From: Shigella phage Sf22
Direction: 5' to 3' (one strand)
Sequence record: MF158045
DNA: 64,000 nucleotides
A model generated the notes under the pieces. That model did not search any database, was not told the DNA's origin, and worked only from the letters and a program-made list of their open reading frames with translations. The position numbers and the translations under genes were made by a program. Of the stretch, positions 532 to 63,553 are shown in pieces. Positions within the stretch are counted from its first letter, which is position 1; the number at the start of each line of letters is the position of its first letter.

Positions 532-822
532 TTATTTACGGAATGAAATGAAAGCAGCAACTGAAGCAACTAAACTGTCTTCAATATAAACTTCAATTTT
601 TACCGGAGCTTCTGACTCAAATTTACCTGTTACTACACCTTGGAAAATACTTTCAGTTTGTTCTGGCTTTGAAAAATTTTCAGAAGGAAAAATTCCGAAC
701 TTTTTATCTGTTCCAAAAATTTTAATAAATTCATCGTAAACTGCTTCATTAAAAGCATTATCAGCAGGAATAACGCCTTCAACTACAAGTTCTTGACCTA
801 AAAAGCGTAAAGAAGATTTCAT
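532..822 (-). CDS. Hypothetical protein (96 aa) downstream of alt
   Basis: ORF track; start is preceded by GAGGA and the conserved promoter-leader cassette. Confidence 0.55.
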   Translation of the reverse strand: MKSSLRFLGQELVVEGVIPADNAFNEAVYDEFIKIFGTDKKFGIFPSENFSKPEQTESIFQGVVTGKFESEAPVKIEVYIEDSLVASVAAFISFRK

Positions 823-853: not shown

Positions 854-883
854 ACTATAACACAACACGAGGGACTTGTAAAC
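854..883 (-). promoter_or_regulatory. Early sigma70-type promoter (-35 GTTTAC, -10 TATAGT), copy 1 of an exactly duplicated 54-bp promoter-leader cassette
   Basis: Minus-strand reading GTTTAC-N18-TATAGT then leader ending in GAGGA; identical sequence recurs at 16152-16205. Confidence 0.5.
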
Positions 884-2940
884 TACATTTTGAACTTTTT
901 AGACATTCCGTTGATGTTAACCAAAGAAGCTAAGATTTGAGAAACTTCATTTTCCTCTTCTTTTGATTCTTCTACAAGGAATTGATTAAATCCAGCCATT
1001 GGACGAACTTCACCAGTTTCCATTAAATGGTCGCCATCATATACTGATTCTTCTAATTGTTCAGAAGGAGGAACGATTGTACCTTCGATTAGATACTTGT
1101 TATAAGCAGTTTCTTTCATAAAGTACGTGCTCACTTTATTAATCTTCAGTAAAATTCCACGTGGTAGAATAACTTCAGCTTCTGATGGAAATCCTGATAA
1201 ATGACCCGGAACGATAACTTTGATTCGCTCAGCTCCTTTAATTACCATACCCACGCTAGTTTCAGCATCTTCATTAGCATATGTAGAATGACTACCCATA
1301 TGCATCAAATCTTCTGCATCAACAGAACCTTCTCCTTCGCCAGAAAATACTGCACCGGAATCATCTAGAGCCATATAGTTTTTACCATGCTCACCGAAGA
1401 TATTTGGTTTAAGTGATGTTGATACGAAGTTCTTGAAATAGAACATTTTATTTTCAATATTATGGCGTAAAGTTTTAAAGGTAACTTCTTGTCCACGATA
1501 AAGCGTAGTTCCTGGAGGAAGAACTGAACCTTTAGCGAATGCAGAATCCATTGTCTCGATGTGTTTAATAGCTCGTTCCATGTATTCTTCACGGGTAGAA
1601 TCTGGTTTACCCAAAAGGAACGAGTTCATTTCAACATATGAATCTGCACAATAATCTTCAATTACATCAGATTCAGCTTGAGTTAATCCTTTTGGAGTTA
1701 CTTCGGTGCTTGCGTATTCATATGCCTGGGCAGCAGATTCATTAATCAATTTATAAATGCCATTCATGACAAATTGAATAATAGCTGTCTTTTCATCTGG
1801 CGTAGCTTTAGAACCTTTAACTAAATCATTAATAATTTTCTTAATAACATCAAAGCTATTAGAAATATTAATGTCAGCAAGATCGCTTAAAATTTTATCA
1901 GTTTTATAATCAAAGAATTCTTTATTCTTTAAATATTCTTGAGAACCTTGATATGTTATATCGCTCTGCAACTTGATAGATGGATCACGTAAACGTGCAT
2001 GTGCTAATGCAATATGATTTCGGAAGTTTTCTAGTTCATAATCGTTAGATTTAAAACGAGAAGCACTTCTCATACCACCGATAGCTCCTTTGCTAAAGTT
2101 TGAACCAATCTGGATAACCCCGGAGTTCATTGGTCCTTCTGCTTTATATACCGGAACTTTAGATTCAAACTCTTGATATTTCTTGGCAGCGAAGCTATCA
2201 CCCTGAAGTGAAGCATCGACAGTAGAATATTGAGCTTGTGCTGCTAATCGACGACTAATTTTAGTTTTCTGAATAACAGCTTGATCAGTGCGCTTATCAT
2301 TTTCTAAAGCAATAGAAGCAGCAACAGCGACAGCTTTAGGAACAGCATTACCTGTTTTAACGTCTACATAAACATCACCAACCTTTGATTCAACTTTTGT
2401 GAATAACTCAGTTGAAATAGGAGGTACACCTGGAATGTCTTCTAAATTGGCATTTTTACGGTAAACCATAATATATGCGTACTTTTTATCATAGTCCCAG
2501 ATTTCCTTTAAAAGAACATACCGACCTGCTCCTTTAGTACGTACTAAACGGTCAGCAATAACTTGCATTTGACGAGCTGCGCCATTTGTTTTACTCTTTA
2601 GTACGCGGAATAGGCATGCGTCGATTTTATACTGCTTCATTGTTTGAAGAGCAGTATCAAAAACAGCATTAATGACGCCAATTGGATTTCCACCCAAGTT
2701 TCTAAGCTTAACCAGCGATAATTTCTCGTTGACACCTATCATTACGATATGCATCATTTTATCGCCTGGCTTAACGTTTTTATTCGTATCACCACCAGAG
2801 GTGTATGTACAAAATCTAAATCCAGGAAGCACGCTTTCTTCGCCGGCTTGAATAGCAAAAATTTGTGGTATTTTATGCTTAGGATTTAAGTTAACAACCG
2901 GCGCCGAAGCGCCGTCAAATAATTCTGTAATAAGTTCCAT
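883..2940 (-). CDS. alt: Alt-family mono-ADP-ribosyltransferase, paralog A (685 aa)
   Basis: N-terminal MELITELFD... matches recalled T4 Alt; C-terminal domain carries R / STS / E-x-E motifs (LYRGQ, FVSTS, SEAEVILPRG). Confidence 0.85.
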   Translation of the reverse strand: MELITELFDGASAPVVNLNPKHKIPQIFAIQAGEESVLPGFRFCTYTSGGDTNKNVKPGDKMMHIVMIGVNEKLSLVKLRNLGGNPIGVINAVFDTALQTMKQYKIDACLFRVLKSKTNGAARQMQVIADRLVRTKGAGRYVLLKEIWDYDKKYAYIMVYRKNANLEDIPGVPPISTELFTKVESKVGDVYVDVKTGNAVPKAVAVAASIALENDKRTDQAVIQKTKISRRLAAQAQYSTVDASLQGDSFAAKKYQEFESKVPVYKAEGPMNSGVIQIGSNFSKGAIGGMRSASRFKSNDYELENFRNHIALAHARLRDPSIKLQSDITYQGSQEYLKNKEFFDYKTDKILSDLADINISNSFDVIKKIINDLVKGSKATPDEKTAIIQFVMNGIYKLINESAAQAYEYASTEVTPKGLTQAESDVIEDYCADSYVEMNSFLLGKPDSTREEYMERAIKHIETMDSAFAKGSVLPPGTTLYRGQEVTFKTLRHNIENKMFYFKNFVSTSLKPNIFGEHGKNYMALDDSGAVFSGEGEGSVDAEDLMHMGSHSTYANEDAETSVGMVIKGAERIKVIVPGHLSGFPSEAEVILPRGILLKINKVSTYFMKETAYNKYLIEGTIVPPSEQLEESVYDGDHLMETGEVRPMAGFNQFLVEESKEEENEVSQILASLVNINGMSKKFKM

Positions 2941-2943
2941 GAT

Positions 2944-5040
2944 TTATCCTTGAACGAACTTGTAAGGCATGTTTGTAATATCTATGCAAGACGCAATAAT
3001 TCCAAGAGATGATTCTACTTTCTGTTTAACATTTGATGAAACAAATGATGCAAAGTCAACTCTGTCTTCTATTTCAATATCACCTGTCATTGCAACTACT
3101 TCGCCAGTTTCCATTAAACGGTCACCGTCATAAATTACCGATTCGGTGAGTTCTTCGGTGGTCATAACTTCAGCTTGAATGAGTTTTGTATTATTAGACG
3201 TGGTTCCGTCATTATTAGAAGCATCAGTTATTTTATTAACTTTGACCATCAATCCGCGCGGTAGAATAACTTCGGCTTCTGTTGCTATTCCGAGACTTCC
3301 TGGATATACAACATTAACTTTATGAGCTCCATCAATTGCCCATCCTATTTGAACTTTAACGTATTCAGGATTTTCTTTATACGCTCTTATTTCGTTTGGA
3401 TTAATAGTTATTCCTTCTTCATTTTTATCAACTGTTAATTCATTGCGAGCTTCTGGTTCTAAAAGACCAATACCAGCATGTGTAATTCCAAAACGTCCAA
3501 AAATGATAGGAGTTAAAGAAGTAGATACAAAATTTCTGAAATAGAACACTTTATTTTTAACTAGTGCTTCGTATATAGGAGCAGTCATACTTTGAGCACG
3601 ATAAACTGTAATGCCTTCCGGTATACGGTCACCATTTTCAAAAGCTGAATCTAAATTATTTATAGCAGATTCAATTTCTTTTTCACTCATTATATCATAT
3701 CGTTCTGGATTGTAACGACCTAAAAGAAGATTATTGATGTCTGTATATCCTGAACCACAATACTCTCTAATGCCGCGCTTTTGTGATGGAGTATATTTAG
3801 AACCATCACGGGCAATAGTAATATCAATCATTGGACCTGCACCAATTCCGGAAAAGCTATAAATCATTCGTTTGAGGAATTTAGTTTTTGCTGCATTCCA
3901 GGCATTTTTAGTTATTTCTCCCCAGACTTCATCTGGTTGCCCTTTACGAGTTTTATTATGTTTATCAAGCCAATTATCTTTATATTCTTCAAAGAATTTA
4001 TTAACAGCTGCTGCGTATTTCTCTAAACATTTTATTGAAGTAGTTGGTTCATTTTTGATTGCGTTAAAAATTACATCTTTAATTTTTTCGGAAACTTCAT
4101 CAACCTCACTTTTTGAAAAGAATTTATAGTCATAGTGAAGTTCATTCGCAGTTCCTTCGGCAATAATTTTTGCTGCCTTAGTTTTAGAAGCTAATGAATT
4201 AATTCCAAGCTTCATTTCTTCTGCTTCGGGAATTAAAGGAGCGGTAGCAGGTTTATTGAAATTAGCTGCGGTAGATTCATACTTCTGGAATAATTCACTT
4301 TCAAATCTAGAAGACTCTAACGATTGACTTTGTGCAATTGCTCTACGGGAAATTTTAACTTTAACGATTACAGCTTGGTCAGAACGTTTATCGTTTTCTT
4401 GTGCAATAGATGCTGCAATTGCCTCATTTTTAGTTACTTGAGCCCCAGTATCTTTATTGATATAAACATCACCGACCTTCGATTCAACTTTAGTAAAGAG
4501 CTCGGTACTAATTTCCGGAACTCCTGGAATGTCTTCTAGTGATACATTTTTGCGATGTATAAGAATATATGCATACTTTTTATCATAATCCCAGAGTTCC
4601 TTAAGAAGGACGTATCTGCCACCTGAACGACTACGGATAAGTCTATCAGCAATAACTTGAATTTGTCGAGCTTGACCAGCGGTTTTAGACTTAAGAATAC
4701 GGAGCATACAGGCATCAATTTTATACTGACGCATTGTTTGCATTGCAACAGTAAAAACTGAATTGATATAATTAATTGGGCTTGGACCAAGACCTTTTAA
4801 TTTAGCAATTGAACCTTTAGCAGTTAATGTAAAAGGAACAATATGCATCATTTTATCGCCCATCTTTAAATCGCGATTAGTATCACCTCCAGATGTATAG
4901 GTACATAAACGAAAGCCTGGCTGTTCAATTGCATCATCAACGTGAACTGAAAAAATTTGCGGTATTTTCTTCTTTGGATTTAAGTTTGTAATCGGAAGAG
5001 TAGTATCTTCGTCAAATAATTCTGTAATAAGTTCCATCAT
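2944..5040 (-). CDS. alt: Alt-family mono-ADP-ribosyltransferase, paralog B (698 aa)
   Basis: First ~230 aa closely similar to paralog A; central region diverged; catalytic motifs retained (VYRAQ, FVSTS, TEAEVILPRG). Which copy is the T4 alt orthologue cannot be decided without alignment. Confidence 0.85.
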   Translation of the reverse strand: MMELITELFDEDTTLPITNLNPKKKIPQIFSVHVDDAIEQPGFRLCTYTSGGDTNRDLKMGDKMMHIVPFTLTAKGSIAKLKGLGPSPINYINSVFTVAMQTMRQYKIDACMLRILKSKTAGQARQIQVIADRLIRSRSGGRYVLLKELWDYDKKYAYILIHRKNVSLEDIPGVPEISTELFTKVESKVGDVYINKDTGAQVTKNEAIAASIAQENDKRSDQAVIVKVKISRRAIAQSQSLESSRFESELFQKYESTAANFNKPATAPLIPEAEEMKLGINSLASKTKAAKIIAEGTANELHYDYKFFSKSEVDEVSEKIKDVIFNAIKNEPTTSIKCLEKYAAAVNKFFEEYKDNWLDKHNKTRKGQPDEVWGEITKNAWNAAKTKFLKRMIYSFSGIGAGPMIDITIARDGSKYTPSQKRGIREYCGSGYTDINNLLLGRYNPERYDIMSEKEIESAINNLDSAFENGDRIPEGITVYRAQSMTAPIYEALVKNKVFYFRNFVSTSLTPIIFGRFGITHAGIGLLEPEARNELTVDKNEEGITINPNEIRAYKENPEYVKVQIGWAIDGAHKVNVVYPGSLGIATEAEVILPRGLMVKVNKITDASNNDGTTSNNTKLIQAEVMTTEELTESVIYDGDRLMETGEVVAMTGDIEIEDRVDFASFVSSNVKQKVESSLGIIASCIDITNMPYKFVQG

Positions 5041-13380: not shown

Positions 13381-14773
<1,393 letters not shown>

Positions 14774-16208: not shown

Positions 16209-17796
<1,588 letters not shown>

Positions 17797-17823: not shown

Positions 17824-19002
17824 TTAAAAGTATTTTTTAAAACTCATCATAACTTTATCATCAACATCATTATCAATCTGTGCAACAAGATAAGATGACA
17901 GTTCTACTTCTTGTGGCGCGGATTGAACATTATCAGAATTAAGATATTCACGAATCCAAGGATATGGATGTTTAACCGGAGCATCGGTAATTGGGCATGG
18001 AAGACCGCACTGTTTCATACGAGATACAGTTAAGTAATCAATAAAGCTCCACATGCTATTTGTATTTAATCCAGGAACATCGCCATCTTTAAATAAATGA
18101 ACTGCCCAATCTTTTTCTTGGCGGTTAACTTCCATGAAAATATCAACTGCTTCTTGTTCACACTCTTGAGCAATTTTAACCCATTGACCGCCATCAGTAC
18201 CAGATTGAAGTTGACGAATAATATATTGGGTGCCTTTAAGGTGAAGCTGTTCATCGCGTGCAATGAACTTCATAATCTTGGCATTACCTTCCATGATTTC
18301 CATGTTCTTATGGAAGTTAAAGGTACATGCGAAAGATACATAAAAACGAATAGCTTCCAATGCGTTGATTACATGCAAACAGAGGTAAAGAGATTTCATT
18401 AGCTCACGCTTCCAATATGTCTCATGCTCAATAGCATCTTCAATAACGTCTTCGTCTGCATTAATTTCTTTTTGGTATTCGATATCAGCTTTAGCGTTTT
18501 CCCAATAACGAGTTTTAATCAGAACATCATCATAATAACGTCCAATGGATTCAGCACGTTTCATAATAGCTTCATCTAATACAATTTCATCAAATACCTT
18601 CGATGGATCAGTATAAAGATTTCGCATGATATGAGTATATGAACGACTGTGAATAGTTTCACTAAAAGTCCATGTAGCAACCCATGTATCAAGACTTGGG
18701 TCTGAAATTAATGACATAAGTACAGCAGATGGCGCGCGACCCTGAATACTATCTAAAAGTGATTGATACTTCAAGTTGTTAGTAAAAATATTTTGCTGAT
18801 ACTGAGGAAGCTTATTAAACTGTGCAGCATCCATCATCAAGTTTACTTCTTCAGGACGCCAGAAAAATGATAATTGCTTTTCGGTTAAATCTTCAAAAAC
18901 TTTATGACGTTGAATATCATAACGCGCAATACCAAGACCTGAACCAAAAAACATAGGTTCTTTTAAAACATCAACTGGATTTGTATTAAAAACTGTGCTC
19001 AT
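17824..19002 (-). CDS. nrdB: Ribonucleotide reductase small subunit, uninterrupted
   Basis: 392 aa continuous ORF with di-iron ligand motifs; no intron or internal endonuclease ORF. Confidence 0.95.
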   Translation of the reverse strand: MSTVFNTNPVDVLKEPMFFGSGLGIARYDIQRHKVFEDLTEKQLSFFWRPEEVNLMMDAAQFNKLPQYQQNIFTNNLKYQSLLDSIQGRAPSAVLMSLISDPSLDTWVATWTFSETIHSRSYTHIMRNLYTDPSKVFDEIVLDEAIMKRAESIGRYYDDVLIKTRYWENAKADIEYQKEINADEDVIEDAIEHETYWKRELMKSLYLCLHVINALEAIRFYVSFACTFNFHKNMEIMEGNAKIMKFIARDEQLHLKGTQYIIRQLQSGTDGGQWVKIAQECEQEAVDIFMEVNRQEKDWAVHLFKDGDVPGLNTNSMWSFIDYLTVSRMKQCGLPCPITDAPVKHPYPWIREYLNSDNVQSAPQEVELSSYLVAQIDNDVDDKVMMSFKKYF

Positions 19003-21872: not shown

Positions 21873-22733
21873 TTACACCGCCATCTTTCCTTTAATAGGA
21901 GGGTGTGATTCATAGTTGTTAAGAACAAAATTATGCGGCTTTGCGAATTGACTCAACCAAAATACCTGCGATTCTGTGTCCCATTCATCAAATTCATCTG
22001 GAAATTTTAATTGCAATTCGCATAAATCCATAGGTTCACGACGCAAAATTTCTTTACATTGCTCTACGTGATTCATATAGATATGAGTATTACCACCAGA
22101 AAATATCAAATCTCCGGGAATAAGATTACACATCTTAGCTACAATATGCGTCAAGGCAGCGTACGAGGCAATGTTGAATGGCAAGCCCAAGAAAACATCT
22201 ACACTTCTTTGGTACCACTGCAAATCCAAATAGCCATTACGCACATTAAACTGATAGAACATATGACAAGGCGGTAATGCCATATATTTAAGTTCAGCTG
22301 GATTCCACGCAGAAACAATTTGACGCCTATCATTCGGCAGTTTTTTAATACGATCAATAACTTCTACAATTTGGTCTACACCGCCAAAATCACGCCATTG
22401 TTTTCCATAAATTGGACCAAGTTCACCGCTATGGTATCCTAAATCTTTTGCCTGATTTTCGTAATTTTCATCCCAAACTGTTTTGCCTTGGATTAATGAA
22501 TCATGCTGAATTAATCGTAAATCATTGACATTTGTGCTTCCTGACAAAAACCATATTAACTCAGCAATGCATGCATTCCAGGCGAGCTTTTTAGTTGTTA
22601 CTGCAGGAAAACCTTTGGTTAAATCCCAACGCAATTTAGTACCGAACAAAGCAATTGTTCCTGTGCCTGTTCGGTCATCGGTTTCATAACCATTTTCAAA
22701 AATGTCTTTAATTAAATCTTGGTATTGTTTCAT
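21873..22733 (-). CDS. td: Thymidylate synthase, uninterrupted
   Basis: 286 aa continuous [29 protein letters not shown]...; no intron. Confidence 0.95.
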
Positions 22734-33960: not shown

Positions 33961-33986
33961 GAGGGAGCCTTCGGGTTCCCTTTTTC
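33961..33986 (+). terminator. Rho-independent terminator after gene 35
   Basis: GGGAGCC-TTCG-GGTTCCC stem followed by TTTTTC. Confidence 0.55.
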
Positions 33987-42745: not shown

Positions 42746-42895
42746 TTACTGCATGACTGTGATAACTGTCATGATAACACGTTGAATTCCGAACGCAAGA
42801 AGACCTCCTGCTACGGCTGGAACAACGCCTAAACCCGCCAGTAAAATGCTACCAGATACTAATGCCGCGCTTGTAATACCTATGAATGGACTCAT
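42746..42895 (-). CDS. Small hydrophobic protein (49 aa) between 52 and motA
   Basis: MSPFIGITSAALVSGSILLAGLGVVPAVAGGLLAFGIQRVIMTVITVMQ; below the ORF-track size cut-off; start overlaps the gene 52 stop. Confidence 0.5.
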   Translation of the reverse strand: MSPFIGITSAALVSGSILLAGLGVVPAVAGGLLAFGIQRVIMTVITVMQ

Positions 42896-44220
42896 TTGAT
42901 TTCCTCTAAATCTTTGGTGTATTCTGTAACTACATCAGTAGTTTTCCAATATTCGTTTTCTTCTTTTTTAGCTTTAGCTTCTTCTGCAAGTTTCTTTGCT
43001 TCGTCGGAAGTCATATGAAAAATATTCATTCCGACTAGTTTATCAACATAAGAAGAATACATCTCAATTTTAGAAAGTTCTTCAGTCAGTTCTTTACGAG
43101 TTTTACCCTGTACAACAATTTCACCTGAAATTACTTTCTTAATGAAATGTGCCTTGGCAAAGGCTAAACGAAATGCTGATTCAGTTTCTTTAATTTTGTT
43201 ATCAATTCGTTTTTGGACATAAGTTTTACGAACTTCAACAAAGTCTTTAATTAAATCAACTACGTTATCGTAAACTTGTAGCTTTCCTTTCTCATTAATG
43301 ACTGTAATATTTTGGGAACGACGCTCAATCAACCCGAAGTCTTTCATAATTTTTGCATGGCGTTCTTCTTCGTTATCGCTCAAAGAATATTCTTTACGGA
43401 ATTTAACTTTGAATCCAAACCCGTGCTCACCGCAAGCATCATCCCATGTAATGAAGCCTTTATCTTCAAGCGGGTCTAAGATTTTACTCACATAAGTTTC
43501 ACGATCATACTTATACGGAATCTCGGTGATATGCATTTGAGTTCGTGAAGTAAACTTATATGTTCCACGAATTTCATATTGCCCATCAATTTCAACGACT
43601 TCACCACGAAATTCTGGGAATTCTACCTTCGGTTTAGTTACTTTCTTTCCTTGAAGAGCTTGCAGTACAGCTTTCTTAACAGAAGAAACACTATGAGGAA
43701 GAATGTAAGTTGCATAACCAGTTGCAATACCGGAAACACCATTAAGAAGAACAGTAGGAATAATAGGCAAATAGAAAGCAGGCGGAATGTGTTCTTTATC
43801 TTGATGTACCGGAGCATATTCAGTATCTTTATATACGTTATAGAAATTTTTACTTACACGAGCAAAAATATAACGACTTGCCGCTGCCTTTTGGACAGTA
43901 CGAGAACCAAAGTTTCCTTGACCATCTAACAGAGGAAAGTTATTATTCCAAGTATTAGCCATCAAAGCACCTGCATCTTGTGCAGAGTTTTCGCCATGGT
44001 GATATCCAAGGTCCGCTACACCGCCTGCAATAGAAGCGAGTTTGTGAAACTTATCTTTATTTCCTCGTGCCAAATCAAGAGCTCGAGCAATAACAAATCG
44101 TTGAACTGGCTTAAATCCGTCAATCATATTTGGGATAGCACGATTTTCAACCGTGTACATAGCATAAGCCAGTGCTTCATTATCAATGATACTTTTTAAA
44201 TCGCGATTATTCAGTTGCAT
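42892..44220 (-). CDS. 52: DNA topoisomerase II medium subunit
   Basis: 442 aa, MQLNNRDLKSIIDNEALAYAMYTVENRAIP... with GyrA/ParC-like motif; matches recalled T4 gp52. Confidence 0.95.
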   Translation of the reverse strand: MQLNNRDLKSIIDNEALAYAMYTVENRAIPNMIDGFKPVQRFVIARALDLARGNKDKFHKLASIAGGVADLGYHHGENSAQDAGALMANTWNNNFPLLDGQGNFGSRTVQKAAASRYIFARVSKNFYNVYKDTEYAPVHQDKEHIPPAFYLPIIPTVLLNGVSGIATGYATYILPHSVSSVKKAVLQALQGKKVTKPKVEFPEFRGEVVEIDGQYEIRGTYKFTSRTQMHITEIPYKYDRETYVSKILDPLEDKGFITWDDACGEHGFGFKVKFRKEYSLSDNEEERHAKIMKDFGLIERRSQNITVINEKGKLQVYDNVVDLIKDFVEVRKTYVQKRIDNKIKETESAFRLAFAKAHFIKKVISGEIVVQGKTRKELTEELSKIEMYSSYVDKLVGMNIFHMTSDEAKKLAEEAKAKKEENEYWKTTDVVTEYTKDLEEIK

Positions 44221-44224
44221 AAAT

Positions 44225-44365
44225 TTACCATACTAGTGAATGTAGTGCCATAATAACATCAGAAATGAAAAGCACGACTTGAATTAATCCGAACATTACT
44301 CCATAATATAGTGCTACCAATAAAGTAGCAAGGGCTAATGAATAGCCCAAGATTTTCTTAATCAT
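44225..44365 (-). CDS. Small hydrophobic protein (46 aa)
   Basis: MIKKILGYSLALATLLVALYYGVMFGLIQVVLFISDVIMALHSLVW; hand-translated, not in ORF track. Confidence 0.4.
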   Translation of the reverse strand: MIKKILGYSLALATLLVALYYGVMFGLIQVVLFISDVIMALHSLVW

Positions 44366-44516
44366 TAGTAGATAACAACACAAATGTTAAATATGCACAC
44401 ATACCCTGGGCTAAAGCTTGTGAAAACACACTGCTAGCATCGATACAGATAGTTAAAACACATGCTACTATCCAACAAATAAATGAAATAACTCCTAATA
44501 ATTTTGCGATATTCAT
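44358..44516 (-). CDS. Small membrane protein (52 aa; start moved to MNIAKLLG)
   Basis: GAGGAG RBS upstream of the internal ATG; paralogous to the next ORF. Confidence 0.5.
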   Translation of the reverse strand: MNIAKLLGVISFICWIVACVLTICIDASSVFSQALAQGMCAYLTFVLLSTND

Positions 44517-44526
44517 AATATTCTCC

Positions 44527-44682
44527 TCAACTATTTTTAGAACCAATGTACGCGAATAATGATAAAATCGCTAATACACCCTGAGCTGATGCTTGCAAAA
44601 ATACTGAAGTTTCTCCAGTTATTACTGTTCCGATGCATAAAAAGAACCAACAGAAAAAGGCTATACCGTGAACAAATTTCAT
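44527..44682 (-). CDS. Small membrane protein (51 aa), ac-like by position and size
   Basis: MKFVHGIAFFCWFFLCIGTVITGETSVFLQASAQGVLAILSLFAYIGSKNS; shares an S[VS]F.QA.AQG motif with the preceding ORF. Confidence 0.5.
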   Translation of the reverse strand: MKFVHGIAFFCWFFLCIGTVITGETSVFLQASAQGVLAILSLFAYIGSKNS

Positions 44683-44689
44683 ATTTTCC

Positions 44690-44770
44690 TCACTGGCGTC
44701 CGAAGACGCCTTTGGTTTTAAGATTGTTACGATAAAACTGCATCACATGTTCGTTATGGAAATTACTCAT
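44690..44770 (-). CDS. stp: Stp peptide (26 aa), activator of the host PrrC anticodon nuclease
   Basis: Hand-translated [26 protein letters not shown] matches recalled T4 Stp; lies between ndd and the ac-like ORF. Confidence 0.8.
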
Positions 44771-45213
44771 TAATATGCCTGCAAAACAAATTTAAAGTTA
44801 TCAGCCAACATACGGTTCATTTCTTCAAGTGTTTGATACTCAGAATGATGATTACGAGTAAACGCTAAAGCTAACTGACCTTTTCCAAATCCCGTCGTCA
44901 GAGGTTTCATCTTAGAAGCAGGCAGATAAAACACCGTGTATACCATATTATTATTTGCAATAGTACGCGCAAGTTGAGACCGTCGTTGACGAATATGACT
45001 TAAAACCGCGCTGAATCCTTGCTTAGAACGCTGATTACCTACATAAAATCGTGCAGATACACATGAACCATCGAATTCACTTACTAAAAAGTAAAATCCA
45101 GGTTTAGACAAAATGTCTTTGTGTGGAGTTCCCAAAAACCACTCACCGCCCTTGATTGTACCAATAACAGTAGCGCCTGCGTTGTTCAGATCAGTAACAG
45201 CCATATATTTCAT
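44770..45213 (-). CDS. ndd: Nucleoid disruption protein
   Basis: Start set at [45 protein letters not shown]...; matches recalled T4 Ndd. Confidence 0.9.
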
Positions 45214-50755: not shown

Positions 50756-52576
50756 CTACTGGCTCATCCATTCTTTACGAAGGTCAGCATTATCTCCCAT
50801 GAGCATTTCAAAAAGCTCTTTCCAATTCTCAGGAAGTTTAACAACATCATATACTGGATTTTGAATCATCTCACGATATTCAGATTTTTCCAAAGAGCCA
50901 AGTCCCTTAATATAACGGATGCTATGTTTAGGTAGAGCATCTTTGGCACTCTCATATTCAGCGACTGTATAAAACCATTCTTGTTTTTTACCGACCTGAG
51001 CGATGATTACAGGAGTTTTGACAAAGCGAATTCGTCCTTGCTCAAACAATTCTGGCCAATTACTAAAAAATCCGAGCAGAGAAGGATAAATGCTTCCTAA
51101 ACCATCATGGTCAGCATCAGTCATAATAGCAATATTATGATAATTCAAGTTTTCAGCTTTTTCACCGAGAACTAGACCAGTGATTGCGCAAATATCAAAT
51201 AATTCTTTGTTTTTAAGCATATCTGCATAAGACATACCCCAACTGTTGAGAACTTTACCACGCAATGGATAACCACCGTGAAGTTCTTTATCACGAACAT
51301 CAATAAGATATCCGATAGCCGAATCACCCTCAGTCAAGAAAAGAGTAGTATCAGCATCTTTACCGCAAAGATTCGCTTTGATATGTTTATGAACTTTAGC
51401 TTTAGAAGCCTTTTTAGCTGCTTTAGTTTCAGCTGCTTTTTCTGCTGCCAATTTACGGGCCAAGGCAGCTTCAATAATCGGCATTAAAATTGCTTCATTA
51501 TTTAGAATAGCGCGTGAAATCTTTTTAGCATCAAGCTGAATATGACTACGAATTTCGCCAAATGGAGAAGTCAAACGCTCTTTAGTTTGAGAATCAAATC
51601 GCATGTTTTTCATATCACGGACAAACATAACGATAGTCAAACATTCTTTGACACGTGCTTTAGTTACATCAATTTTGAACTTACGTTTGATTTGTGGAAT
51701 AAGGTCTTCACAAATATCATCCATAACACAGTCAATGTGATGGCCACCATTCTTAGTGTGAATGTTATTCACATAAGTTAATTGGCGAAATCCATCCGGT
51801 GAACGACCAACCGCAATAGAACAATTTTCTTGTTCTTGAACAATAGCATGTTCATCATACTGTCGTGCATATTTCTTAAAATTGCCCTGAACCTTTTTAC
51901 CATTAAAGGTAAATTGAATATCAGGATAAACTACTGCAAGTGTCTGGAGACGATCCAGTGTAATGTCAAGATAAACTTGGGACAGCTCATTAGTTTCAAA
52001 TGACATAAAATCTGGAATGAAAGTAACACGAGTTCCTTTCCATTTTCCAGGAATAGTTTCCCAGGATTTATTTTCCATGCCATTTGAACAACGAACTACA
52101 ATATTATTTTGACCATCGCCAGTTTCACCGACAAACATCACAGAAAAAATGTTAGTTAAACTAGAACCAACACCATTCATACCACCGGTGACACGTTCTT
52201 TATCATCACCAAAGTTACCACCCGCTTTTGGAATAGTCCAAGCAGCAACTGGACCAGGAATTTCTTCACCGGTAGGTGTTTTAACCATCGCTTGTGGAAT
52301 ACCACGACCGTTATCTTCAACTGTTACTTGATTGTTTTTGATAGTAACATTAATTTTATTTGCGAATTTAAACTTAGTACGAATACCTTCATCTACTGAG
52401 TTATCGATAATTTCATCAATAAGCTTAACAAGACCAGGTACATACTGAACACTTTCCCATTTACCAAACAGAAAGCGCTCATGCATTTCATTAGCAGAAG
52501 AGCCAATATACATGCCGCTACGCTTTTTGATATGTTCAATATCGCTCAGAATTTTAATTTCATTCTTAATCATCAC
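50756..52576 (-). CDS. 39: DNA topoisomerase II large (ATPase) subunit, single uninterrupted ORF
   Basis: 606 aa GyrB-like protein; continuous, so it covers the regions that T4 splits into genes 39 and 60. Confidence 0.93.
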   Translation of the reverse strand: MMIKNEIKILSDIEHIKKRSGMYIGSSANEMHERFLFGKWESVQYVPGLVKLIDEIIDNSVDEGIRTKFKFANKINVTIKNNQVTVEDNGRGIPQAMVKTPTGEEIPGPVAAWTIPKAGGNFGDDKERVTGGMNGVGSSLTNIFSVMFVGETGDGQNNIVVRCSNGMENKSWETIPGKWKGTRVTFIPDFMSFETNELSQVYLDITLDRLQTLAVVYPDIQFTFNGKKVQGNFKKYARQYDEHAIVQEQENCSIAVGRSPDGFRQLTYVNNIHTKNGGHHIDCVMDDICEDLIPQIKRKFKIDVTKARVKECLTIVMFVRDMKNMRFDSQTKERLTSPFGEIRSHIQLDAKKISRAILNNEAILMPIIEAALARKLAAEKAAETKAAKKASKAKVHKHIKANLCGKDADTTLFLTEGDSAIGYLIDVRDKELHGGYPLRGKVLNSWGMSYADMLKNKELFDICAITGLVLGEKAENLNYHNIAIMTDADHDGLGSIYPSLLGFFSNWPELFEQGRIRFVKTPVIIAQVGKKQEWFYTVAEYESAKDALPKHSIRYIKGLGSLEKSEYREMIQNPVYDVVKLPENWKELFEMLMGDNADLRKEWMSQ

Positions 52577-63544: not shown

Positions 63545-63553
63545 TTAAATTAT

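Follow-up and report, generated by a model that had tools for sequence, protein, structure and literature searches.

What does a reading frame of only 81 nucleotides encode in the genome of a T4-like phage, and why do its last codons carry a very stable RNA hairpin? These two questions are raised by positions 44690..44770 (minus strand) of the DNA analysed here, a 64,000-nucleotide stretch of Shigella phage Sf22 (sequence record MF158045) to which we refer as the window. The original prediction was that this frame encodes Stp, the peptide which in T4 activates the PrrC anticodon nuclease of the host, that the enzymes repairing the cleaved tRNA are encoded in the same window, and that a hairpin sits inside the 3' end of the stp frame. 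We thus asked whether the frame is a gene at all, what it would do, and what the hairpin may be for.

In the ORF listing the frame has an ATG start and 26 codons; on recount, which might have revealed a disruption, it proved intact and gave the translation proposed originally. Openness of a 26-codon frame is in itself no proof of a gene, as short ORFs are abundant at this place (in the surrounding 2.5 kb there are 34 with 20 aa or more). It could be argued, therefore, that the frame is merely open and encodes nothing, the more so as it is left out of the annotation of many genome records. However, the peptide is identical to the genetically and biochemically defined T4 Stp (NP_049878) at all 26 positions, in agreement with the match noted originally, and the three nucleotides in which its DNA differs from that of T4 are all synonymous. 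The peptide matches the Pfam family PF08133 'Anticodon nuclease activator' along its full length (residues 1-26 of 26) with 75.3 bits (E=2e-21), the curated cutoff of this family being 25 bits, and PHROG 6763 'activator of host PrrC lysyl-tRNA endonuclease' with E=4e-21, so that both models respond at E≈1e-21. A tblastn search of 50,697 phage records found Stp in 816 of them, in 421 at an identity of at least 99%. Conservation on this scale, which extends to other phage families, already refutes the idea of a chance ORF, whose probability we consider practically nil.

The position of the frame leads to the same conclusion. A 1-kb query around stp matched 552 records, almost all of them from Tequatrovirus; the best match (Shigella phage SHBML-50-1) reached 98.1% and none was identical. 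By these matches, the window can be assigned to a Tequatrovirus that is T4-like, yet distinct from T4. The minus-strand order is 52, 52.1, ac, ac-like, stp, ndd, which places stp between ndd and ac/52.1/52, as in T-even phages. Gene 52, encoding a topoisomerase subunit, is at 42892..44220 and 52.1 at 44225..44365. They are followed by the orthologue of ac, the acridine resistance protein (44358..44516; PHROG 2501 over residues 12-61 of the listed ORF, the protein itself starting with MNIAKLLG), and by an additional ac-family small membrane protein of 51 aa (44527..44682; PHROG 2501, E=5e-26), which lies directly downstream of stp. On the other side lies ndd, encoding the nucleoid disruption protein (44770..45213; Pfam Phage_T4_Ndd, E=3e-86); the Pfam match begins at residue 17 of a 163-aa ORF, and an SD with an ATG is found at 45213. 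All of these genes are on the minus strand.

The last base of the ndd stop TAA is also the first base of the stp ATG (TAATG), and upstream of stp there is only a weak AGG, so that stp is probably translated by coupling to the termination of ndd. At its other end, the stp stop UGA (44690..44692) runs into the ribosome-binding site of the next gene, sharing bases with its GAGG; this site together with the start of that gene forms the block GAGGAAAAUAUG (44680..44691, minus strand). The identity with T4 at the cost of synonymous changes only, the Pfam and PHROG matches, the location between ndd and ac and the broad conservation together argue that stp is a real gene.

The two repair enzymes are encoded ~27-31 kb from stp. 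The gene pseT (13570..14478, minus strand) encodes Pnkp, a polynucleotide 5'-kinase/3'-phosphatase, with AAA_33 at residues 6-149 and HAD_PNKP at residues 160-302; its product aligns to residues 1-301 of PDB 1LTQ (E=2.6e-209) and thus combines a P-loop kinase and a HAD DxDxT phosphatase in one polypeptide of ~301 aa, as is characteristic of Pnkp. The gene rnlA (gene 63; 16209..17333, minus strand) encodes RNA ligase 1, Rnl1, with both the nucleotidyltransferase domain (RNA_lig_T4_1) and the Rnl1-specific C-terminal domain (T4_Rnl1_C), and its product aligns with all of PDB 2C5U (1-375, E=3e-253). The listed ORF (16209..17369) has a GTG start that lies 12 codons too far upstream; the true start is M13 (MQELFNNL), at 17333. 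The presence of both genes in the window, claimed beforehand, is therefore borne out by the domains as well as by full-length alignments.

The circuit of Stp, EcoprrI-PrrC, Pnkp and Rnl1 has been known since the 1980s–90s and is among the oldest phage-host defence and counter-defence circuits to be worked out. In the work of Kaufmann and colleagues, pnk- and rli- T4 are restricted on prr+ hosts, and this defect is suppressed by stp mutations, which cluster at residues 4-14 (PMC3014915). Stp binds to EcoprrI, a type Ic complex of the host, whose DNA restriction it blocks; it relieves type Ic restriction (EcoprrI, EcoR124I) but not type Ia, which implies the Hsd complex as its target (PMC3014915). 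On prr+ hosts, the block of EcoprrI unmasks the associated PrrC nuclease, tRNA-Lys is cut 5' of the wobble base, and the ends are healed by Pnkp and sealed by Rnl1 (PMC3014915). The activity of Stp sits in its N-terminal 18 residues, which hardly vary among the relatives of T4, in contrast to the polymorphic remainder, and deletion of the last eight codons lowers both activities only moderately (PMC3014915). How Stp inhibits EcoPrrI was described as still unknown in a 2025 review (PMC12707154). For the phage itself, Stp is proposed to serve as an inhibitor of type Ic DNA restriction by EcoprrI and EcoR124I (PMC3014915, PMC12707154). The word 'trigger', used in the original prediction, thus describes the use that the host makes of Stp, whereas the phage-side role in the literature is anti-restriction.

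In the window, the N-terminal 18 residues of Stp, including the suppressor positions 4-14, are the same as in T4. We assume from this identity that the peptide acts both as a type Ic restriction inhibitor and as a PrrC activator, and the established T4 model (PMC3014915) may be carried over on the same grounds. Stp would bind EcoprrI of the host and block its DNA restriction; in a prr+ host, the blocked EcoprrI would unmask PrrC, leading to cleavage of tRNA-Lys 5' of the wobble base, and Pnkp would then heal and Rnl1 seal the cut tRNA. All in all, the feature is very probably the intact stp gene of a T4-like phage (Tequatrovirus), in its T4 position and accompanied by full-length Pnkp and Rnl1, and in this assignment we have high confidence. 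At the same time, stp and the repair set are T4 biology that is already known, which makes the present finding a rediscovery of a classic circuit, of which the window carries an intact copy. Its value is mainly for annotation, and little for discovery.

How uneven this annotation is can be seen from public records. In the nearest one, NC_031085 (98.1% identical), the stp interval is unannotated. T4 itself (NC_000866) has stp annotated, with a note describing the anticodon-nuclease biology; the FriedrichZschokke record calls the product 'type IC restriction inhibitor', and the Sfk20 record 'activator of host PrrC'. In the match list, 18 records have an identical Stp; one of them names it, two have a 'hypothetical protein' and one carries no annotation whatsoever; the remaining 14 list only ndd, by virtue of its one-base overlap with stp, two of them together with a 'terminator'. 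In the record MG867727 (phage vB_EcoM-G28; L005 461..476) there is no stp CDS, and the in-frame hairpin is annotated as 'putative transcriptional terminator'; in MK327945, a 'terminator' is likewise paired with ndd in the match table. Being 'unannotated' is thus a common database artefact for the 81-nt stp, a gap in annotation and no new biology. As stp is unnamed in most listed records, gene callers miss a functionally defined anti-restriction peptide.

We now turn to the second question. The predicted hairpin is indeed there: the sense strand of stp reads GGCGUC-UUCG-GACGCC from 44710 to 44695 (44695..44710, minus strand), a C(UUCG)G tetraloop hairpin spanning codons G21 to R25 and the first base of Q26. 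RNA folding of the stp 3' region, a check named beforehand, gave the hairpin at -12.2 kcal/mol (z=-2.95). The wider context of 141 nt is not unusually structured (z=-0.72), and a second stem, which seemed to cover the ribosome-binding site of the ac-like gene, proved not to be robust. A scan of the whole window at Rfam gathering thresholds gave zero matches, so no curated RNA family explains the hairpin.

One objection is that the hairpin has no role at the RNA level and is a by-product of the codons for GVFGRQ, within which it entirely lies. Against this speaks the choice of codons. GGC, GTC, GGA and CGC have usages of 0.17, 0.085, 0.29 and 0.15, respectively, in the long genes of the window, which gives the required codon set a joint P=6e-4 for the given peptide. 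When the last nine stp codons were replaced by usage-weighted synonymous versions, 5,000 recodings folded at -3.0 kcal/mol on average (sd 2.05); the best of them reached -11.5 kcal/mol, and none was as stable as the observed -12.2 kcal/mol. Moreover, Kagunavirus copies of stp encode ...KTKGVFGK by GGAGTGTTTGGAAAA, without any hairpin (-1.7 kcal/mol), which demonstrates that GVFG does not force one. The stp hairpin is not explained by the peptide. The Kagunavirus copies may also be quoted in favour of a mere by-product, for they keep the peptide tail and manage without the hairpin.

Comparison with relatives is less decisive. In Tequatrovirus, including the window (-12.2 kcal/mol) and T4, stem and loop are intact; Dhakavirus has a G.U pair at the stem base (-9.3 kcal/mol), and Gaprivervirus keeps the stem with a UUUG loop (-10.8 kcal/mol). 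The stem is thus kept in three genera of Tevenvirinae while the flanking residues change, and it is kept also in metagenomic variants with different neighbouring residues (KIT..RL, KII..RL). In FriedrichZschokke, a natural isolate, R25S breaks one pair and weakens the hairpin to -6.0 kcal/mol. Among 24 distinct sequences, each of the synonymous or terminal changes in the stem (GGC→GGT, GGA→GGG and a terminal C→T) turns a Watson-Crick pair into G.U. In the formal count, 98.6% of stem cells are paired with a single break, a value which is inseparable from that in a shuffle control. Covariation analysis of 12 distinct T4-like sequences found only one-sided, G.U-compatible changes and no double compensatory substitution, so that covariation speaks neither for nor against the stem. 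T2-type phages have a different C-terminus and no hairpin at all, hence the hairpin is not essential. Comparison therefore lends the stem only modest support, and codon choice remains the main argument. Lack of compensatory double changes and the existence of T2-type phages count in favour of an incidental hairpin; with the codon data on the other side, we regard such an origin as unlikely.

A further argument against an incidental origin comes from the window itself, in which the special C(UUCG)G form of loop and closing pair is shared by nine other hairpins on sense strands, eight of them at cistron ends. Altogether, ten G+C-rich hairpins of this form with a stem of 6 bp or more (6-9 bp in the nine others) occur in the window, with first bases at 33961 and 38379 on the plus strand and at 63546, 52643, 47363, 47129, 44710, 9888, 5092 and 2914 on the minus strand, and all ten are sense-oriented with respect to the local genes. 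Nine of them, that of stp included, stand at a cistron's 3' end. The exception, at 2914, is located 30 nt past the stop of a 698-aa ORF (2944..5040), within the 5' end of the ORF 883..2940. Those at 63546, 9888, 47129 and 33961 resemble terminators, with a T-run after the hairpin (63546 and 9888 are near-identical 22-mers); others, again including that of stp, have the start of the next gene within 12-17 nt. With its UUCG loop, C-G closing pair and stem on the transcribed strand, the stp hairpin fits this class; it departs from the 'predominantly intergenic' location of its members in lying inside an ORF. The stp stop ends 20 nt after the first base of the hairpin, while at the other eight cistron ends the distance is within -8 to +3 nt, and among cistron-end members the stp hairpin alone is read through by an ORF, for 5⅓ codons. 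It is unusual only in being crossed by a reading frame.

Could the palindrome serve transcription termination instead? One possibility is an intrinsic terminator on the plus strand, stopping antisense or late-strand read-through. There the sequence reads GGCGUC-CGAA-GACGCC followed by UUUGGUUUUA and folds at -12.0 kcal/mol, and a consensus scan calls the site terminator-like on this strand only. Yet the late-promoter consensus TATAAATA was not found on the plus strand between 33996 and the site, and from ~39.3 kb on all genes in the region are on the minus strand. The T-run consists of the codons of K-T-K and decays in Gaprivervirus (AGTTAATTTCAG) though the stem is kept there. The extra-stable UUCG loop, finally, exists on the sense strand only, and ten of ten class members are sense-oriented. 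Mostly on account of the missing late promoter and the unconserved T-run, we find a plus-strand terminator quite unlikely.

Another possibility is a terminator or attenuator on the sense strand, which would end the ndd-stp transcript. It is in this sense that MG867727 was annotated ('putative transcriptional terminator, -10.30', on the stp strand), and siphophage relatives do have a hairpin after their Stp-like ORF, sometimes with a T-run. An intrinsic terminator, however, combines a G+C-rich stem with an immediate U-tract, and here the stem is followed by AGUGAGGAAAAUAUG, without a U-tract, and by the ribosome-binding site of the next gene only 2 nt away. The sense tail reads AGUGAGGAAAAU, the T-run being present on the antisense strand only, and the consensus scan makes no call on the sense strand. 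Termination on the sense strand is thus very unlikely.

The reading that we prefer is that the hairpin acts at the nucleotide level, as an element of the C(UUCG)G class which would stabilise the sense mRNA, insulate the adjacent ribosome-binding site, or both; we hold it with about even confidence. In this scenario, the stp frame reads through a hairpin of a normally intercistronic kind, and the weakly constrained tail GVFGRQ would be largely the translation of that hairpin. Most likely it is on the sense mRNA that the hairpin acts, with mRNA stability or coupling to the next gene as its presumed function. It could stand in the way of exonucleases that degrade the ndd-stp segment, or it could stabilise or insulate, in the manner of a 5' cap, the ribosome-binding site that follows after 2 nt, and both roles could apply. 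As the hairpin codons fall within the eight largely dispensable C-terminal codons of Stp, the simplest explanation seems to be that an intercistronic-type hairpin and a tolerant tail share the same nucleotides. Still, synonymous variation in Kagunavirus copies preserves GVFGK, which suggests that the tail is under some constraint at the peptide level, too. Codons 21-26 thus place a very stable RNA hairpin in a part of the peptide which is tolerant in function, and in them one can readily test how constraints on RNA and on protein overlap.

The junction downstream of the hairpin deserves a separate comment. The GAGGAAAAUAUG block is near-invariant across all hairpin-bearing T4-like copies though the gene that follows varies, and the hairpin with this block stands ahead of whichever ac-family paralogue comes next. 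This conserved unit ahead of changing paralogues may be a recombination joint for the family of small ac-like genes.

Some rearranged copies of stp were noticed as well. JS98-like genomes (L026 2703..2783 and ~3001..3072, 170.5 kb; L027 likewise) have two stp copies in tandem modules. The first, after ndd, is an intact stp of the Gaprivervirus type. The second is of the T4 type, with CGG in place of ATG and no canonical in-frame start within 30 nt upstream; its hairpin and SD are still intact, ahead of another ac-like gene. In T2-type phages (T2, L006 401..484; YUEEL01, L008 401..~487) the N-terminal 18 residues of Stp and the gene position are the same as in the window, but the tail reads NFGILGFKK or NFGILGSKNS instead and there is no hairpin. 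In YUEEL01, the 3' end of stp together with the ribosome-binding site that follows it (GGTTCTAAAAATAGTTGAGGAGAATATTATG) matches the 3' end of the extra ac paralogue of the window (44527..44560). The T2-type stp looks like the product of a deletion or recombination by which the end of an ac-like gene was joined to stp codon 18.

Stp is also found outside the T-even phages. Siphophages of the Guernseyvirinae type (12 loci, among them Kagunavirus PDP21P8, on contigs of ~43-45 kb) encode a near-identical Stp (MSNFHNE[HR]...), just downstream of a lysozyme-like ORF and without the hairpin; in one of these loci (L022) the Pfam score is 70 bits. It was probably acquired by horizontal transfer from T4-like phages. 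In Drexlerviridae (26 loci, among them Tlsvirus PHB07, on contigs of ~50 kb) there are unannotated 26-aa ORFs which resemble Stp in residues 1-18 only and end with [QH]RIKK[IM]LNSTNC; they score 36 bits against the Pfam cutoff of 25 and match PHROG 6763 with E=9e-15. Located ~450 nt downstream of these ORFs is a gene for a 190-aa protein with the HAD_PNKP (Pnkp phosphatase) domain only (in L044, for example, the Stp-like ORF occupies 3001..3081 and the phosphatase-only protein 3519..4091). The PHB07 record labels this protein 'polynucleotide kinase'; among the ORFs scanned in the 6-kb Drexlerviridae locus there was neither a kinase nor a ligase. A 35-aa relative of Stp with an N-terminal extension of 8 residues (compare PHROG 28068) is encoded at L078 577..684, and likewise in L079, on contigs of ~46-47 kb. 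The hairpin found there, GCGCCAC-UUCG-GUGGCGC (~693..710), differs from that of stp; it begins 8 nt after the stop and is followed by the ribosome-binding site of the next gene. In further siphophage copies (L011/L066, L067) a stable hairpin comes directly after the stop. A literature search returned no prior report of Stp or type IC in Drexlerviridae, or of 'activator of host PrrC' in siphophages. We do not claim these siphophage peptides as new, because Pfam and PHROG models already capture them.

That Stp-like peptides occur with hairpins of their own, different from that of stp, in genomes of Kagunavirus, Drexlerviridae and other siphophage size suggests a broader idea. A functional mRNA element might have been absorbed into the stp frame, and a Stp-like ORF with an adjacent stable hairpin might travel as a mobile module. 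GVFGRQ would then mainly translate a C(UUCG)G stabiliser or insulator serving the ndd-stp and ac-family cistrons. We put this forward tentatively, as a possibility towards which we remain rather sceptical. If true, it would extend the arms race over type Ic restriction and anticodon nucleases far beyond T-even phages.

The window departs from T4 at other places, too. The large subunit of topoisomerase II is encoded by a single ORF of 606 codons (50756..52576, minus strand), running from the ATPase domain to TOPRIM_C, whereas in T4 it is split into 39 / mobA / 60.1 / 60 with a 50-nt translational bypass; as its gene is continuous, the phage of the window lacks the gene 60 bypass element. In T4, td and nrdB are each interrupted by group I introns. 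In the window, td, encoding thymidylate synthase (21873..22733, minus strand, 286 aa, full Pfam match), and nrdB (17824..19002, minus strand, 392 aa) are continuous ORFs, and a group I intron was not found by Rfam in any part of the window.

When compared with known systems, the locus is closest to T4. All three phage components of the T4 anticodon-nuclease circuit are present at full length, and the phage side shows no difference; PrrC, belonging to the host, lies outside the window. The T4 stp gene has the same neighbours (ndd upstream with TAATG, the ac family downstream), the same in-frame hairpin and the same ribosome-binding site downstream; in T4, however, ac comes directly after stp, while in the window an extra ac-family gene lies between them. 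Other defences that guard restriction systems, such as Ronin, share the logic in which an anti-restriction factor frees a toxic effector held by Hsd subunits (bioRxiv 10.1101/2023.04.06.535777). Their effectors and triggers differ from Stp and PrrC, and they are mentioned here as context only. As to the hairpin, two later papers (PMC8948821, PMC4371310) present C(UUCG)G hairpins as a class reported for T4 by Tuerk et al. in 1988, predominantly intergenic and able to halt reverse transcriptase, with varied functions that include stabilisation of gene 32 mRNA in T4. The stp hairpin has in common with this T4 class the UUCG loop, the C-G closing pair, the G+C-rich stem and the sense-strand orientation, as well as its site, which is the 3' end of a cistron with the next ribosome-binding site immediately after it.
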